Positions 10,953-44,406 of a DNA stretch of 64,000 nucleotides are shown in pieces (position 1 is the stretch's first letter; every line of letters starts with the position of its first letter). This DNA is from Escherichia coli (GTDB lineage: Bacteria; Pseudomonadota; Gammaproteobacteria; Enterobacterales; Enterobacteriaceae): the NCBI RefSeq assembly GCF_013315695.1, contig NZ_CP054353.1. The stretch is one strand, 5' to 3'. The position numbers and the translations under genes were made by a program. The notes under the pieces were generated by a model. That model was not told the DNA's origin and searched no databases. It worked only from the letters and a program-made list of their open reading frames with translations.

Positions 10953-11802
10953 ATGCTTCAGCCAGAGGCGGCAAAATCAATTCATCGCTCTCATGCTGCT
11001 GGGTATAGCGCATCACTTCCAGTACGCGCAACCCCGCGCGGTGCACCGCATCGTTTAACGCCTTCCCTTTCAGCAAACCACTGATAAGCTGAGCACAAAA
11101 CAGGTCGCCAGTCCCTTTCAGGTCGGTTTTTACCCGTGAATGGGAAATGACATTCACGCTGTCGGCACTCACCACCACCACCTGCATCTCCTGATTTTCT
11201 TCATTGCCGGAGGCGCTGGTAATCACCACCCATTTTAATGTGTCTGAAAGCAGACTTTTTGCGGCAGCAATGGCACTGTCGAGATCGCGGCAATCTTTAC
11301 CGGTCAGGATTTCCAGCTCAAAGATATTGGGGGTAATTCCCTGTGCCAGCGGCAGTAAATATTGTCGATACGCCTCGGGAAGGTCAGGTTTGACATAAAT
11401 TCCGCTATCAATATCGCCAATCACCGGATCGACCATGATCAATAGGTCAGGATGGTCTTTGCGTAGCGCAGTCAGCCACTCGGCAAGGATTTTGATTTGC
11501 GATGCCGTTCCCATATAGCCCGTGGTTACAGCACGAAGTTGGCGCAGCGCATCACGCTCCTGAAGCGCACGCAAATAACCGCTAAACCATTCATCCGGAA
11601 TCGCACCACCGTAGAAAGTGTCATAATGCGGCGTATTGCTCAGCAATACCGTCGGCACGGCAAAGACATTCAGGCCGTTCTGTTTGATAGCAGGCACCGC
11701 AATGCTGTTGCCTACGCTGCCGTACACTACCTGCGACTGCACGGCAACGATATCCGCCTGCAGTGCCCTGCTCTTATCGTTAAACAACAACAAACTACTC
11801 AT
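10951..11802 (-). CDS. pdxK: Pyridoxal/pyridoxine/pyridoxamine kinase
   Basis: 283-aa ribokinase-fold ORF; synteny after crr. Confidence 0.92.
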
Positions 11803-11815
11803 TTAATTTTTTCTC

Positions 11816-11881
<66 letters not shown>

Positions 11882-11882
11882 C

Positions 11883-12275
<393 letters not shown>

Positions 12276-12277
12276 TC

Positions 12278-13189
12278 TTAAATCCCCGCCCCCTGGCTAA
12301 AATGCTCTTCCCCAAACACCCCGGTAGAAAGGTAGCGATCGCCACGATCGCAGATGATCGCCACCACCACCGCGCCAGGGTTAGCTTTTGCCACCCGCAG
12401 TGCTCCGGCAACCGCGCCGCCGGAGCTGACGCCACAGAATATTCCTTCCCGCGCCGCCAGTTCGCGCATAGTGTTTTCCGCATCGCGCTGATGAATATCC
12501 AGCACCTCATCCACCAGAGAAGCGTTGAAAATCCCCGGCAGATATTCCGCAGGCCAGCGGCGAATGCCTGGAATACTGCTGCCTTCTTCCGGCTGCAGGC
12601 CAACAATCGTCACCGGTTTGGATTGTTCGCGCATAAAGCGTGACACGCCGGTGATAGTGCCGGTTGTTCCCATGCTGGAGACAAAATGGGTAATGCGCCC
12701 GCCGGTTTGCTGCCAGATTTCCGGTCCGGTAGTGGTGTAATGGGCGTAAGGGTTATCGGGATTATTGAACTGATCGAGCAGCTTTCCTTCACCACGATTG
12801 GCCATCTCCAGCGCCAGATCGCGCGCACCTTCCATGCCCTGCTCTTTGGTGACCAGAATCAGTTCCGCACCGTAGGCACGCATTGCCGCACGGCGTTCCT
12901 GGCTCATGTTGTCGGGCATCAGCAATTTCATGCGATAGCCTTTAAGCGCGGCAATCATTGCCAGCGCAATGCCGGTGTTACCACTGGTGGCTTCGATCAG
13001 CACGTCACCCGGTTTAATTTCCCCGCGCTTTTCCGCCTCGACGATCATCGAAAGTGCCGCACGATCTTTTACCGAACCTGCCGGGTTATTGCCTTCCAGT
13101 TTCAACCAGACTTCACTGCCGTTATTCGGCCCCATTCGCTGCAACTTCACCAGAGGCGTATTGCCAATTGTTTGTTCTAATGTACTCAC
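12278..13189 (-). CDS. cysM: Cysteine synthase B (O-acetylserine sulfhydrylase B)
   Basis: Product from GTG at 13189 begins (V/M)STLEQTIGNTPLVKLQRMG..., 303 aa; ORF track start at 13267 is an upstream extension; first gene of cysM-A-W-U-P block. Confidence 0.92.
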   Translation of the reverse strand: MSTLEQTIGNTPLVKLQRMGPNNGSEVWLKLEGNNPAGSVKDRAALSMIVEAEKRGEIKPGDVLIEATSGNTGIALAMIAALKGYRMKLLMPDNMSQERRAAMRAYGAELILVTKEQGMEGARDLALEMANRGEGKLLDQFNNPDNPYAHYTTTGPEIWQQTGGRITHFVSSMGTTGTITGVSRFMREQSKPVTIVGLQPEEGSSIPGIRRWPAEYLPGIFNASLVDEVLDIHQRDAENTMRELAAREGIFCGVSSGGAVAGALRVAKANPGAVVVAIICDRGDRYLSTGVFGEEHFSQGAGI

Positions 13190-13212
13190 GATCTCTGTCC
13201 ATACGTGGTGTT

Positions 13213-13248
13213 GCCTGATGCGACGCTTGCGCGTCTTATCAGGCCTAC
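13213..13248. repeat. REP (repetitive extragenic palindromic) element
   Basis: GCCTGATGCGACGCTTGCGCGTCTTATCAGGCCTAC, canonical REP palindrome between cysM start and cysA end. Confidence 0.55.
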
Positions 13249-13322
13249 AGGTTACAAACCTTGCCATTAAAAAGCCCGGATCGCGGGAAGCGCCTCCGGG
13301 CGTTTAACATTCACTCAACCTA

Positions 13323-14420
13323 TCAGGCGCTTTGTGCGAGAGCAAGTTCCTCATCGCGGGTTTCAATACGCTCGTCGCCGTTATACAGCCGCGCATGTTG
13401 CAGACCAACGAATAAACGCTCGCCACGCTGCGGGGCATCGTCGCCATGCATCACAACCGTCAGCGCTTCGTTGTACCACCCCAGCGGCTGCACGACTAAT
13501 TGGGTGTAGTGGCCTTTCGGGCTGGCTTCCAGTACCTGTACCGGCAGCGGCGAATCGAGGCTGGTACGGCGGCTGATATCCACTTCCCACGGACGCAGGA
13601 AGAGATCCACTGGCCCCTGATACGCAGGTGTATAGCCCAGCGGCCAGCGATGTGCGCCAACATGGAACTGCCCGCCGCGAATGGTTCCCTGCAGGCGGTT
13701 CACTTCGCCCATAAATTCGAGTACAAAACGGGTCGCTGGTTCGCGCCATACCTGGTCCGGTGCATCAGCCTGCTCGATATTGCCCTGGCTCATCACCACC
13801 ACACGATCGGCTACTTCGGTCGCTTCTTCCTGATCATGGGTCACAAACACGCTGGTGAATTTCAGCTCTTCATGTAACTGACGCAGCCAGCGACGCAACT
13901 CTTTACGCACCTGCGCATCCAGCGCGCCAAACGGTTCATCAAGCAGCAGAATTTGCGGTTCTACAGCCAGCGCGCGCGCCAGTGCCACACGCTGTTTCTG
14001 GCCGCCGGAAAGCTGTGCTGGATAACGATCCGCCAGATGCGCAAGCTGCACCATCTCCAGCAAGTTTGTCACTTTCGCTTTGATAGCTGCGGCATTCGGG
14101 CGCTCGCGACGCGGCAGCACCGTCAGGCCGAAAGCGATATTGTCGAACACCGTCATATGGCGGAACAGCGCGTAATGCTGAAACACGAAACCGACTTTAC
14201 GATCGCGCGCATGCAGGCGGCTGACGTCGGTGCCGTGGAAGCGAATATGCCCGCTGGTTTGATGCTCCAGCCCGGCGATAATTCGCAGCAGCGTGGTTTT
14301 CCCGGAACCGGACGGCCCCAGCAACGCGACCATCTGACCAGAAGGAATATCCAGTGAGATATCGTTCAGCACCTGGGTGCGACCAAAAGACTTCTTAATA
14401 TTGGCAATCTCAATGCTCAT
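13323..14420 (-). CDS. cysA: Sulfate/thiosulfate ABC transporter ATP-binding subunit
   Basis: 365-aa ORF with Walker [13 protein letters not shown] signature LSGGQKQR, Walker B ILLLDEP. Confidence 0.95.
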
Positions 14421-27402: not shown

Positions 27403-27407
27403 CTCCC

Positions 27408-36735: not shown

Positions 36736-38139
36736 TTAAACAATGCGAAACGCATCGACTAATACACAGCGACGCAGACGGACAAACGTCCGCGCGCTGG
36801 TTACCCCTTCACCGGTTGGCGTGGTGATGGTCATGGTGGTCCAGCCTTCCCCGCCCAGCCCCAGCCCGGCAATGCACGGTCCGTTCTTAACGAAAATGCT
36901 GGTATCAATGGCATTCGCCATCTGGTTCATGTTCTCGATATTGCGCGAGTGCATTGCCGCCGTGTGGTGGCAACCGCCTTCCAGTTTCACCGCCAGCGCA
37001 ATGGCATCCGCCACGTTGGCGACGCGCACGACGGGCAGCACCGGCATCATCAGTTCAGTCACAGCAAACGGATGTTCTGCGGTGGTTTCTACAAACAGCA
37101 GTCGCGTTTGTTCCGGAACTTTAAGGCCGATTGCCGCCGCGATTTTCGCCGCATCGCGACCAACCCAGTCACGGCTGACGGTGCCTTTTCCGCGCTCGTC
37201 GATATTTTTCAGCAACACCGGTTGCAGCTGCTGCGCCTGCTCTGCGGTCAGTTTCACCGCGTGCTGGCCTTCCATCAGACGCATCAGTTCATCGGCTACG
37301 CTATCCACAACAATCAGTACCTTTTCGTCGGCACAAATGATGTTGTTATCGAAAGACGCGCCTTTGACGATGGACTGAGCAGCACGGGCGAGGTCGGCGG
37401 TTTCATCCACCACTACCGGCGGGTTGCCAGCGCCTGCGGCAATCAGACGTTTATTGGTGTGTTTACGCGCCGCTTCTACTACCGCTTCGCCGCCGGTCAC
37501 CACCAGCAGGCCGATGCCCGGAAACTTGAACAAACGTTGAGCGGTTTCGATATCCGGATTTGCCACAGTAACCAGTAAGTTTTCCGGCCCGCCTGCGGCA
37601 ACAATCGCCTGGTTGAGCAGCGTGATCGCCCGCTGGGAGACTTTTTTCGCCGCCGGATGCGGGGCAAAAATGACGCTGTTGCCCGCGGCAATCAGGCTGA
37701 TGGCGTTGTTAATTACGGTTGCCGCCGGGTTAGTGGAAGGCGTCACCGAAGCCACTACGCCCCAGGGCGCGTTTTCAATTAAAGTCAGGCCGTTGTCACC
37801 GGTCAGCACTTGCGGAGAGAGGCACTCAACGCCTGGTGTGCCGCGCGCCTGAGCGACGTTTTTGGCAAATTTATCTTCAACGCGCCCCATGCCGGTTTCA
37901 CTGACGGCAAGTTCCGCTAAATCTCTGGCGTGTTTTTCGCCTGCTTCACGAATGGCAGCAATGGCTAACTGGCGCATTGCCACGCTTTTTAACCCTTGCT
38001 GGGCGACTTTGGCTGCCGCAACGGCGTCATCCAGGGACGCGAAAACGCCCATCTCATGAACGGCGGCGGGCGGCGTGTCACTGCTTTGCATTTTCAGCAG
38101 TACCGCTTTCACCACCTGTTCAATATCCTGTTGATTCAT
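36736..38139 (-). CDS. eutE: CoA-acylating acetaldehyde dehydrogenase EutE
   Basis: 467-aa aldehyde dehydrogenase-family ORF. Confidence 0.95.
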   Translation of the reverse strand: MNQQDIEQVVKAVLLKMQSSDTPPAAVHEMGVFASLDDAVAAAKVAQQGLKSVAMRQLAIAAIREAGEKHARDLAELAVSETGMGRVEDKFAKNVAQARGTPGVECLSPQVLTGDNGLTLIENAPWGVVASVTPSTNPAATVINNAISLIAAGNSVIFAPHPAAKKVSQRAITLLNQAIVAAGGPENLLVTVANPDIETAQRLFKFPGIGLLVVTGGEAVVEAARKHTNKRLIAAGAGNPPVVVDETADLARAAQSIVKGASFDNNIICADEKVLIVVDSVADELMRLMEGQHAVKLTAEQAQQLQPVLLKNIDERGKGTVSRDWVGRDAAKIAAAIGLKVPEQTRLLFVETTAEHPFAVTELMMPVLPVVRVANVADAIALAVKLEGGCHHTAAMHSRNIENMNQMANAIDTSIFVKNGPCIAGLGLGGEGWTTMTITTPTGEGVTSARTFVRLRRCVLVDAFRIV

Positions 38140-41874: not shown

Positions 41875-41883
41875 CACAAAGCG
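41875..41883. repeat. IS1 target-site duplication, left copy (CACAAAGCG)
   Basis: Identical 9-mer directly abuts both ends of the IS1 element. Confidence 0.85.
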
Positions 41884-41898
41884 GGTAATGACTCCAAC

Positions 41899-42402
41899 TT
41901 ATTGATAGTGTTTTATGTTCAGATAATGCCCGATGACTTTGTCATGCAGCTCCACCGATTTTGAGAACGACAGCGACTTCCGTCCCAGCCGTGCCAGGTG
42001 CTGCCTCAGATTCAGGTTATGCCGCTCAATTCGCTGCGTATATCGCTTGCTGATTACGTGCAGCTTTCCCTTCAGGCGGGATTCATACAGCGGCCAGCCA
42101 TCCGTCATCCATATCACCACGTCAAAGGGTGACAGCAGGCTCATAAGACGCCCCAGCGTCGCCATAGTGCGTTCACCGAATACGTGCGCAACAACCGTCT
42201 TCCGGAGCCTGTCATACGCGTAAAACAGCCAGCGCTGGCGCGATTTAGCCCCGACATAGCCCCACTGTTCGTCCATTTCCGCGCAGACGATGACGTCACT
42301 GCCCGGCTGTATGCGCGAGGTTACCGACTGCGGCCTGAGTTTTTTAAGTGACGTAAAATCGTGTTGAGGCCAACGCCCATAATGCGGGCTGTTGCCCGGC
42401 AT
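41899..42402 (-). CDS. insB: IS1 InsB (transposase C-terminal frame, expressed as InsAB' by -1 frameshift)
   Basis: 167-aa ORF matching IS1 InsB (…[21 protein letters not shown]…). Confidence 0.93.
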
Positions 42403-42596
42403 CCAACGCCATTCATGGCCATATCAATGATTTTCTGGTGCGTACCGGGTTGAGAAGCGGTGTAAGTGAACTGCAGTTGCCATGTTTTACGGCAGTGAGA
42501 GCAGAGATAGCGCTGATGTCCGGCGGTGCTTTTGCCGTTACGCACCACCCCGTCAGTAGCTGAACAGGAGGGACAGCTGATAGAAACAGAAGCCAC
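42321..42596 (-). CDS. insA: IS1 InsA (transposition inhibitor / N-terminal transposase frame)
   Basis: 91-aa [26 protein letters not shown]…; the A6C slippery run lies in the insA/insB overlap. Confidence 0.93.
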
Positions 42597-42646
42597 TGGA
42601 GCACCTCAAAAACACCATCATACACTAAATCAGTAAGTTGGCAGCA

Positions 42647-42970
42647 TCACCCACAAAGCGTATAATTTAATAAGCGTCCTAAACCACTGACGGTTTGTGA
42701 TAACGCTTCTTCTACTGCGCCCACCGAGCCATAAATCACCAGCGCGCCGCTAAAACGGTCGAGAAAACCGATATGCACATCGGCGGCTTTCAACGCTAAA
42801 TCACCGGCGATCATCGCCGTTTCTCCGGGAGTTAGCGTCATAATGCCAATTGCGCCCGCATCCGGAACGCCGATTTTCTTCGCCAGTTCCTCGCCGGGAT
42901 GCGCGATGAGATGCGCCAGTGTGACCTGTTTACCGGGCACAAATTCCTGAATGATGCGTTCTTTATCCAT
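42647..42970 (-). CDS. eutS: Microcompartment shell protein EutS with C-terminus rewritten by the IS1 insertion
   Basis: Product from ATG at 42970 ([21 protein letters not shown]…, permuted BMC domain); reading frame enters the IS1 inverted repeat and stops at 42647-42649. Confidence 0.88.
42652..42660. repeat. IS1 target-site duplication, right copy (CACAAAGCG)
   Basis: Identical 9-mer directly abuts both ends of the IS1 element. Confidence 0.85.
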
Positions 42971-43335: not shown

Positions 43336-44406
43336 ATGAAAATTCACTACCTTGTCACCACTCTCGAAACGGGAGGCGCTGAATTTGCGATTCCTGATAT
43401 TGTGACTACTCTACAAGATCTTGGTCATGAGGTGAAAATTTATGTATGTGAACCCCGAGATATGGGCGCGGCACCGCGTCTGAAAGCGGCCGGTTTATCC
43501 TGGTGTTTATTATCAAATCGGCGGCGTTCTGTTCCAGTGCTTGTCGGTGCTTATCTGGCAAAAATCATTTACGACAAACCCGATCTCATCTGGACTTCGT
43601 TAAGTTGGGGGACGCGTATTGGACAATGGGGCGGCCGACTTATGGGCATTCCGGTTATCAGTTTTAAACATAGCGCCAGCGTAAAACCAGCAACCTGGCG
43701 TATGCGCAGCATGTCACGTTTATGGATTGGCGATTCTGCAACCGTAACTCAATACCTGCATGAAACCATGCGGATCCCGAAGCAACAAGTGATGTGCTGG
43801 CCTTTTTTTCAGGCTAATCCGCAAGCTGCTCAAGCGAAAAAGTGGGACGGGGTATCAGTTTTACAATTAGGCACCGTTGGTCGCCTGCATGAAGTTAAAA
43901 ATTACGCAGGATTAATTACTGCACTCGCTTCGTTTGTCGATAAAAACCCGCAATTGCGCTCGCGAATCCGACTAACCCTTCTCGGTGAGGGAGCCGAACA
44001 AGAGGTTTTGAAAAAGACCATAACACAACACGCCATGGAGGATGTAGTTTGTTTAGCGGGGTTTTCTGCGGATATCGAAAATTTTCTTGCCGGATTACAT
44101 GTCTATATCCAAACTTCCCGCTACGAAGGGATGTGCCTCGCCGCACACGAAGCCATGAATGCAGGGCTTGCGATCATTACGCCCCCTGTAGGTGAACTTA
44201 AAGAATCGGTAATTGATGGTCATACCGGCTATATACTTAATGGCGAACTAACTCCAGCACTGGAGGAAGTACTTAACCGTATTTTCAATGAACCCACAGA
44301 ATTACAACACTATGGGCAAAATGCGCGTCAGTATGTATTACAGAAATTCAGCCATGAAAATTTTGTCCAGTCTGCAATCAACATTGTTAATAGACTTATT
44401 CACTGA
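43336..44406 (+). CDS. Glycosyltransferase, GT-B fold, family-4-like (retaining), orphan accessory gene
   Basis: 356-aa ORF; N-terminal Gly-rich motif (TLETGGAEFAIPDIVTTLQDLGHEV) and C-terminal EX7E motif (YEGMCLAAHEAMNAGLAIITPPVGE) typical of GT4 enzymes; lower G+C than neighbours. Confidence 0.75.
   Translation: MKIHYLVTTLETGGAEFAIPDIVTTLQDLGHEVKIYVCEPRDMGAAPRLKAAGLSWCLLSNRRRSVPVLVGAYLAKIIYDKPDLIWTSLSWGTRIGQWGGRLMGIPVISFKHSASVKPATWRMRSMSRLWIGDSATVTQYLHETMRIPKQQVMCWPFFQANPQAAQAKKWDGVSVLQLGTVGRLHEVKNYAGLITALASFVDKNPQLRSRIRLTLLGEGAEQEVLKKTITQHAMEDVVCLAGFSADIENFLAGLHVYIQTSRYEGMCLAAHEAMNAGLAIITPPVGELKESVIDGHTGYILNGELTPALEEVLNRIFNEPTELQHYGQNARQYVLQKFSHENFVQSAINIVNRLIH

Follow-up and report, generated by a model that had tools for sequence, protein, structure and literature searches.

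A yfeK–cysM junction lacking yfeS in Escherichia coli as the probable unoccupied site of a horizontally acquired cassette

The window analysed here, a stretch of Escherichia coli DNA 64,000 nucleotides in length, contains two convergent genes whose stop codons almost touch. On the plus strand, the ORF list gives yfeK (11907–12275) as a 122-amino-acid coding sequence with a GTG start and a DUF5329 product, ending in a TAA stop codon at 12273–12275. Pfam family PF17263 matches residues 24–115 of this protein (E = 1.8e-31), and the gene is annotated as a YfeK family protein in the RefSeq entry of the near-identical strain MS 21-1. On the minus strand, cysM (12278–13189, from the RefSeq CDS of MS 21-1) encodes the 303-amino-acid cysteine synthase B, and is the last gene of the sulfur-assimilation operon cysPUWAM; the CysM proteins of the window and of MS 21-1 are 100% identical. 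The cysM stop codon reads TTA (= TAA) at 12278–12280, leaving a 2-bp spacer, tc, at 12276–12277, and positions 12260–12289 read ggtgcctgcg caa TAA tc TTA aatccccgc. Both the window sequence and the ORF list thus confirm the 2-bp distance between stop codons given in a preliminary description of this DNA. As far as annotation is concerned, this junction is an ordinary, already annotated gene arrangement.

A close sequenced relative is MS 21-1, to which an 801-bp stretch spanning the junction is 100% identical. Over the full 64 kb the identity is 99.97%, and the window carries one extra IS1; the window strain is a close relative of MS 21-1, not the same strain. Because of these differences, I dropped the transfer of the MS 21-1 RefSeq annotation to the whole window, and re-derived the coordinates beyond 41884 from the window itself.

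Upstream of yfeK, a pattern match on the plus strand predicts a sigma-E-type promoter motif (GAAACTT-N16-TCAAA, 11846–11873). It is identical to the K-12 sequence, and is found also in E. albertii and in the Enterobacteriaceae genome UBA5654. Passages of three papers (PMC2685091, PMC11502571, PMC3326320) report yfeK, or yfeKS, as an operon of the sigma-E regulon, and in two of them (PMC2685091, PMC11502571) the passages describe yfeK and yfeS of K-12 as co-transcribed from the sigma-E promoter. In the window, neither the sequence nor the ORF list contains a WGR-domain gene (PF05406) between yfeK and cysM, and the reported absence of yfeS at this site is therefore correct.

The preliminary description also had a 244-residue WGR-domain gene separating the two genes in K-12, and an alignment showing them equally adjacent there was named as the finding that would overturn this. 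Comparison with K-12 bears the statement out. In a K-12-derived genome (L001), yfeK (124 amino acids) is followed by 32 bp, then by yfeS (735 bp, 244 amino acids), and then by a 188-bp spacer leading to the cysM stop codon, and the yfeK and cysM stop codons of K-12-type genomes are 955 bp apart. The Pfam WGR domain (PF05406) covers residues 9–71 of K-12 YfeS (E = 6e-18). The K-12 locus (b2419–b2421) otherwise has the same flanking genes in the same order and orientation, with the same sigma-E motif, and its flanks are 95–99% identical to those of the window. What differs is that the window lacks the 955 bp of yfeS and REP sequence, so that its stop codons are separated by 2 bp as opposed to 955, and that its YfeK ends in PAQ (122 amino acids) as opposed to PAEGN (124 amino acids).

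The inserted segment has a compact anatomy. The yfeS cassette is 0.94–0.97 kb long: a strong ribosome-binding site (AGGAGG) precedes yfeS, and a terminator hairpin and a pair of REP elements follow it. Apart from yfeS, the hairpin and the REPs it has no contents: no mobility gene (integrase or transposase) and no tRNA attachment site was found within it. Its GC content is 0.36–0.42, compared to 0.48 for yfeK and 0.56 for cysM. The REP pair is present only in the occupied allele (L001 2862–2965), and sequences matching this pair recur at numerous other sites in each E. coli genome; no REP palindrome is found in the spacer of the window, which is just 2 bp. The hairpin located 3′ of yfeS is intact in the BL21 and AST85 alleles (L025 2271–2307), with a 12-bp core stem and a folding energy of −26 kcal/mol (z = −5.3), while in K-12 (L001 2823–2850) and in a Pseudocitrobacter metagenome-assembled genome (MAG) a 16-bp deletion has removed its 3′ arm. 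As for function, a boric-acid sensitivity phenotype of a K-12 yfeS deletion is mentioned in the excerpts of the literature found. Among the titles, abstracts and passages of the yfeS and yfeK literature, none concerned a presence/absence polymorphism of yfeS.

The position at which the cassette is inserted can be defined closely. Likeness between the window and the yfeS-bearing alleles ends after position 12269 and returns at 12273 (TAATC), placing the insertion point at 12270–12272; the split BLAST match restarts at query base 394, corresponding to window position 12273. The aligned K-12, BL21, AST85 and Pseudocitrobacter alleles give the same boundaries, and these are identical from one allele to the next, which would point to a single origin of the cassette. 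A short repeat at the junction had been proposed as something to look for, and an 8-bp direct repeat, ATTAATCC, is indeed present at both ends of the K-12 cassette. With 17 families of 8-bp repeats counted in 1.1 kb, such a repeat is statistically unremarkable, and ATTAATCC is notable only for its position at both boundaries. Across the boundary, the end of yfeK changes from caa TAA in the empty allele to gaa gga aat TAA in the occupied one, and the protein tail accordingly from PAQ to PAEGN; the change falls outside the DUF5329 domain (residues 24–115).

I then considered how frequent the two arrangements are. In a set of 5426 complete E. coli genomes, yfeK and cysM are contiguous in 4039 (74%), and yfeS is present in 1387, always as a single copy, with K-12 and BL21 among the carriers. 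As these counts together account for the whole set, E. coli shows essentially two states at this site. Among the matches listed, the genomes with a contiguous junction or without a yfeS match include CFT073, Nissle, the type strain ATCC 11775 and ST131, as well as O104:H4, O111, O55:H7, O157:H7 and O145:H28 strains; I take these to represent phylogroups B2, B1 and E. The carriers, again among the matches listed, include K-12, DH1, O16:H48 and BL21/B, mostly with genomes of 4.5–5.0 Mb, and these presumably belong to phylogroup A; for carriers and non-carriers alike, the phylogroup labels go by the named strains, as opposed to computed typing. In 1223 carriers yfeS is at least 99% identical to that of K-12, and in 165 it is 95–99% identical (for example the BL21 and AST85 types); the alleles differ by 3–4% from one another. 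An IS1 breaks the gene in LR-03 and in 254D-1, and ET650 has a truncated copy, so yfeS is dispensable in some carriers.

The same junction was also compared in other members of the family. No yfeS is present in Escherichia sp. E1V33, from a cryptic clade, where yfeK and cysM overlap by 12 bp; in Pseudocitrobacter faecalis, which has a 2-bp gap and a near-identical junction sequence; or in UBA5654, with a 1-bp gap. C. amalonaticus, Superficieibacter sp. and Entomohabitans likewise have no yfeS, nor any gene between yfeK and cysM, and their gaps are 31–57 bp. Across taxa, the gap of the empty site thus ranges from −12 to +57 bp. In E1V33 (L003 1417–1428), a small deletion has removed the yfeK stop codon, such that yfeK runs 12 bp into cysM in antisense; the cysM stop codon of this strain is TGA. 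Other Pseudocitrobacter genomes carry the yfeS and REP cassette between yfeK and cysM, with boundaries identical to those in E. coli (L006 4376–5316; L032 3909–4643).

In further relatives, the junction is occupied by unrelated sequences. E. albertii (L010 4331–6149) has 1.8 kb of 34.5% GC with two ORFs, both on the opposite strand, and C. sedlakii (L011 4364–8182) has 3.8 kb with two ORFs of ∼630–650 amino acids, one of which possesses TPR repeats. In Klebsiella and Superficieibacter electus, a DUF4440/SnoaL gene is found at this position and overlaps the cysM stop codon by 4 bp, and in Salmonella a 116-amino-acid ORF lies at the yfeK–cysM junction (coordinates for these three, given jointly: L031 3898–4293; L013 4473–4895; L030 3876–4226). 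In one Enterobacter, the gene that faces yfeK is DsbA-like, and 3 bp separate the two. The tail of YfeK following ...DKT varies with each downstream content. Because the deeper relatives are heterogeneous, as illustrated by the Salmonella ORF and the Klebsiella and S. electus DUF4440 gene, the ancestral state of the junction for the whole family is uncertain. For Escherichia it appears to be empty, in a survey of relatives where E. albertii carries other cargo and is not empty, and where E. fergusonii was outside the sample. The recurrence of unrelated cargo, along with one cassette common to E. coli and Pseudocitrobacter, provides modest points of interest for pan-genome studies.

Two directions of change can account for the two alleles, and the preliminary description had left both standing, with yfeS either lost here or gained by K-12. 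The observations on the anatomy of the site, its frequency in the population, its state in related taxa, base composition and the distribution of homologues bear on this choice. The cassette is present or absent at one exact site, its GC content is atypical, and its homologues are patchy, as is characteristic of a horizontally acquired cassette. In a homologue search, YfeS sequences from E. coli and Shigella, at ∼80% identity and above, are followed by one sequence at 65%, and then by homologues at 55–58% from Paenibacillus, Dysgonomonas, Lysinibacillus and Clostridium, that is from Firmicutes and Bacteroidota; this search returned no named enterobacterial intermediates between the E. coli and Shigella sequences and those at 55–58%. 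When K-12 is compared to the Pseudocitrobacter MAG, identity at third codon positions is 92% for yfeS, as opposed to 59% for yfeK and 73% for cysM; the cassette is thus of more recent date than the flanking genes, and has been exchanged between these genera. I also searched the 5426 genomes with a synthetic query in which the K-12 flanks are joined at the ATTAATCC repeat. The excision product predicted in this manner (a 124-amino-acid YfeK and a 3-bp gap, gcg gaa gga aat TAA tcc TTA) was found in 0 of the 5426 genomes; every full-length match to the query is the empty allele gcg caa TAA tc TTA, which is 7 bp shorter. This argues against loss.

The opposite history, in which yfeS is ancestral and was deleted from the window lineage and from most of the species by recombination at ATTAATCC, would explain why this repeat sits exactly at both cassette boundaries, and the 3–4% divergence among yfeS alleles implies that the cassette is not very recent. 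I nonetheless consider it very improbable: the deletion product it calls for is missing from all 5426 genomes, and the same empty sequence is found in P. faecalis, with a variant in the cryptic Escherichia clade. In addition, yfeS has ∼40% GC, its nearest named relatives outside E. coli, Shigella and Pseudocitrobacter belong to Firmicutes and Bacteroidota, and its identity at synonymous sites between genera is far above that of the flanks. Occasional secondary loss could occur, since the flanking 8-bp repeat is of a kind able to mediate excision. Given how widespread the empty site is, the low GC of yfeS, its distant homologues and the missing excision product, it is highly probable that the window has the unoccupied junction, original for Escherichia, and that the K-12 lineage gained yfeS as a horizontally acquired cassette. 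Of the two possibilities raised initially, the gain is thus favoured over the loss.

Under this gain of yfeS, K-12, BL21 and some quarter of sequenced E. coli would carry a low-GC cassette that was acquired horizontally and entered the window sequence between 12269 and 12273. The insertion would have exchanged the last yfeK codon and its stop for gaa gga aat TAA, placed yfeS within the sigma-E-driven yfeK transcription unit, and left the ATTAATCC direct repeat at the cassette ends. This corrects an expectation centred on K-12: yfeS is an accessory gene of about one quarter of sequenced E. coli, and the K-12 gene order would be the derived one.

A further statement of the preliminary description was that convergent transcription is now unbuffered at this junction. 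This is not supported as worded: stop codons this close together are the older arrangement and a widespread one, and convergent pairs that are similarly tight, or that overlap, are frequent both in the window and at this locus in other genera. Three of the ten convergent pairs in the 64-kb window have a gap of 5 bp or less: in addition to yfeK and cysM, yfeH and ypeB overlap by 4 bp (2494–2497), and hemF and eutR are 5 bp apart (27403–27407). The ten gaps are −4, 2, 5, 37, 42, 57, 80, 98, 102 and 599 bp. A preprint on K-12 counts 704 convergent pairs, 207 of them with REP elements, with pairs of zero or negative spacing set aside. The abutment is therefore not unusual, and I infer that the layout is tolerated and long-lived.

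How transcription ends at such a junction was approached from sequence features. A scan of 11700–13400 revealed no intrinsic terminator (or promoter consensus), where 2.3 terminator-like sites are expected in shuffled sequences, and no Rfam family was detected at the junction in 11000–13500, even at a permissive threshold. A REP-like palindrome is found at 13212–13244, in the cysA–cysM spacer upstream of cysM, with a partial match to the Rfam family naRNA4 (37.9 bits, for a gathering threshold of 59.5). At the junction itself, a repeat search identified a 9-bp perfect inverted repeat, ATTGCGCAG (12240–12248) and CTGCGCAAT (12265–12273), separated by a 16-nt loop. It falls inside the 3′-terminal codons of yfeK, with 4 nt between it and the cysM stop codon. 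On the minus strand, corresponding to the 3′ end of the cysM mRNA, the RNA hairpin folds at −16.3 kcal/mol (z = −3.4; among 200 shuffled sequences, 1 does as well), and on the plus strand at −14.0 kcal/mol (z = −2.0). It is followed by AUAAUCUUAAAU on the plus strand and by UUAACGCAUGUAAAAAA on the minus strand, neither of which is a U-tract. The hairpin is weakened in the yfeS-bearing alleles, lost in E1V33 and absent in UBA5654, and folding of the junction in other taxa revealed no common hairpin. Synonymous identity across genera is 0.59–0.66 at the yfeK 3′ end, compared to 0.29–0.49 in the first 48 codons; as this is only mildly raised, and one window in the middle of the gene reaches 0.65, I do not claim a special synonymous constraint on the yfeK 3′ end.

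The composition of the sequence beyond each stop codon was also examined. Untranslated antisense RNA is an established target of Rho-dependent termination in E. coli. Beyond the yfeK stop, on the plus strand and antisense to the cysM 3′ end, positions 12276–12353 form a C-rich, G-poor stretch, which by its composition is a candidate Rho-loading region (C 0.37, G 0.19, C/G 1.93). Among all 78-nt windows of the 64 kb, both strands included, this ratio is above the 95th percentile (1.71) and below the 99th (2.15). On this yfeK read-through side, no 78-nt window has a C/G below 1.3 up to and including the one that ends ∼300 nt beyond the stop codon; on the cysM read-through side it is 1.1–1.5, rising to 2.0 at +196 to +299. 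Such a composition would fit with Rho-dependent termination. In the empty state, where there is no intrinsic terminator, each transcript would probably enter the opposing gene briefly as untranslated antisense RNA, and Rho would probably stop these read-through RNAs, possibly aided by the 9-bp hairpin at 12240–12273 and, when both promoters are active, by polymerase collisions.

Stronger roles can be envisaged for the same features. The 34-nt hairpin at 12240–12273, which is part of the yfeK coding sequence, might act as a terminator in both directions or as a place where polymerases collide; it would then set both 3′ ends and shield the cysM mRNA from exonucleases. Its stem is perfect over 9 bp, and on the strand of the cysM mRNA it lengthens to 11 bp, folds better than shuffled sequences and starts 4 nt past the stop codon; in two E. 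coli variants (L004 and L027) it is kept on the minus strand by G-U pairs and broken on the plus strand, and a preprint (Wang et al., 2022) reports that stem-loops lacking a U-tract determine where convergent polymerases collide. I regard this role as unlikely, as there is no U-tract on either strand, the terminator scan is negative, and the junctions of E1V33 and UBA5654 are equally tight where the hairpin is lost or absent; the two variants are both synonymous transitions, too few to establish covariation. A broader proposal, to which I give a slim chance, is that throughout Enterobacteriaceae this boundary has been conserved as a landing pad for foreign genes, with the hairpin in the last codons serving, where the site is empty, as a coding-embedded terminator or RNA stabiliser for the strongly induced cysPUWAM mRNA. 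If so, each insertion, that of yfeS included, would rewire the transcription interference between the sigma-E response and sulfur starvation.

It could also be imagined that the 2-bp abutment is itself a selected device, in which convergent transcription from the sigma-E promoter of yfeK and the CysB-dependent promoter of cysP makes envelope stress and sulfur limitation mutually repressive, by way of antisense RNA or of colliding polymerases. Two inducible promoters are indeed opposed here with no intrinsic terminator between them, the tight layout is kept across genera, and the synthetic and single-molecule literature indicates that convergent transcription can tune expression. Against this, many lineages have unrelated cargo freely inserted at the junction, a REP-bearing cassette sits there in one quarter of E. 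coli with no sign of compensation, and the gaps of the empty sites vary from −12 to +57 bp; given also that conservation of the yfeK 3′ end is only mildly raised, and that tight convergent pairs are common in general, I find a selected device quite improbable. With the gain of yfeS at a tolerated, spacer-less junction as the preferred reading, the empty and occupied alleles make a clean natural pair for studying how inducible convergent units without a spacer are ended, and what a REP-bearing insert does to this.

Several known systems are similar in part. Excerpts of the literature describe abutting or overlapping convergent gene pairs of E. coli with bidirectional termination, which likewise have common, or nearly common, 3′ ends and a stem-loop at the boundary. 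In contrast to these, the window lacks the arrangement of A-tract, stem and U-tract, its stem-loop lies within coding sequence, and its mode of termination is a prediction from sequence. The yfeS cassette also resembles small accessory-gene islets without mobility genes that are found at permissive sites between convergent genes, in its presence or absence at an exact site, its atypical GC, its short direct repeats and the presence of other cargo elsewhere; it has no integrase, transposase or tRNA, and differs in having the same boundaries in two genera, E. coli and Pseudocitrobacter. Finally, in Klebsiella and S. electus the 3′ end of cysM similarly meets a convergent gene without a spacer, with the DUF4440/SnoaL gene in place of yfeK, which there lies one gene further off.

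Elsewhere in the window, the extra IS1 is a complete 768-bp copy at 41884–42651, with the insA and insB ORFs on the minus strand, located between eutS and eutP of the ethanolamine-utilisation operon. It is flanked by a 9-bp target duplication, CACAAAGCG, at 41875–41883 and 42652–42660, and MS 21-1, otherwise 99.97% identical, lacks this element. The insertion may have polar effects on the eut genes downstream of it. Between eutS and maeB, a 356-amino-acid ORF (43336–44406) is annotated, from MS 21-1, as a glycosyltransferase of family 4, and K-12 is not known to have a gene at this position. The alignment to MS 21-1 also includes a 1-bp gap somewhere in 1–41883. The eutE gene (36736–38139) is intact in the window, with 467 codons and no internal stop, whereas the RefSeq annotation of MS 21-1 lists it as a pseudogene with an internal stop codon.
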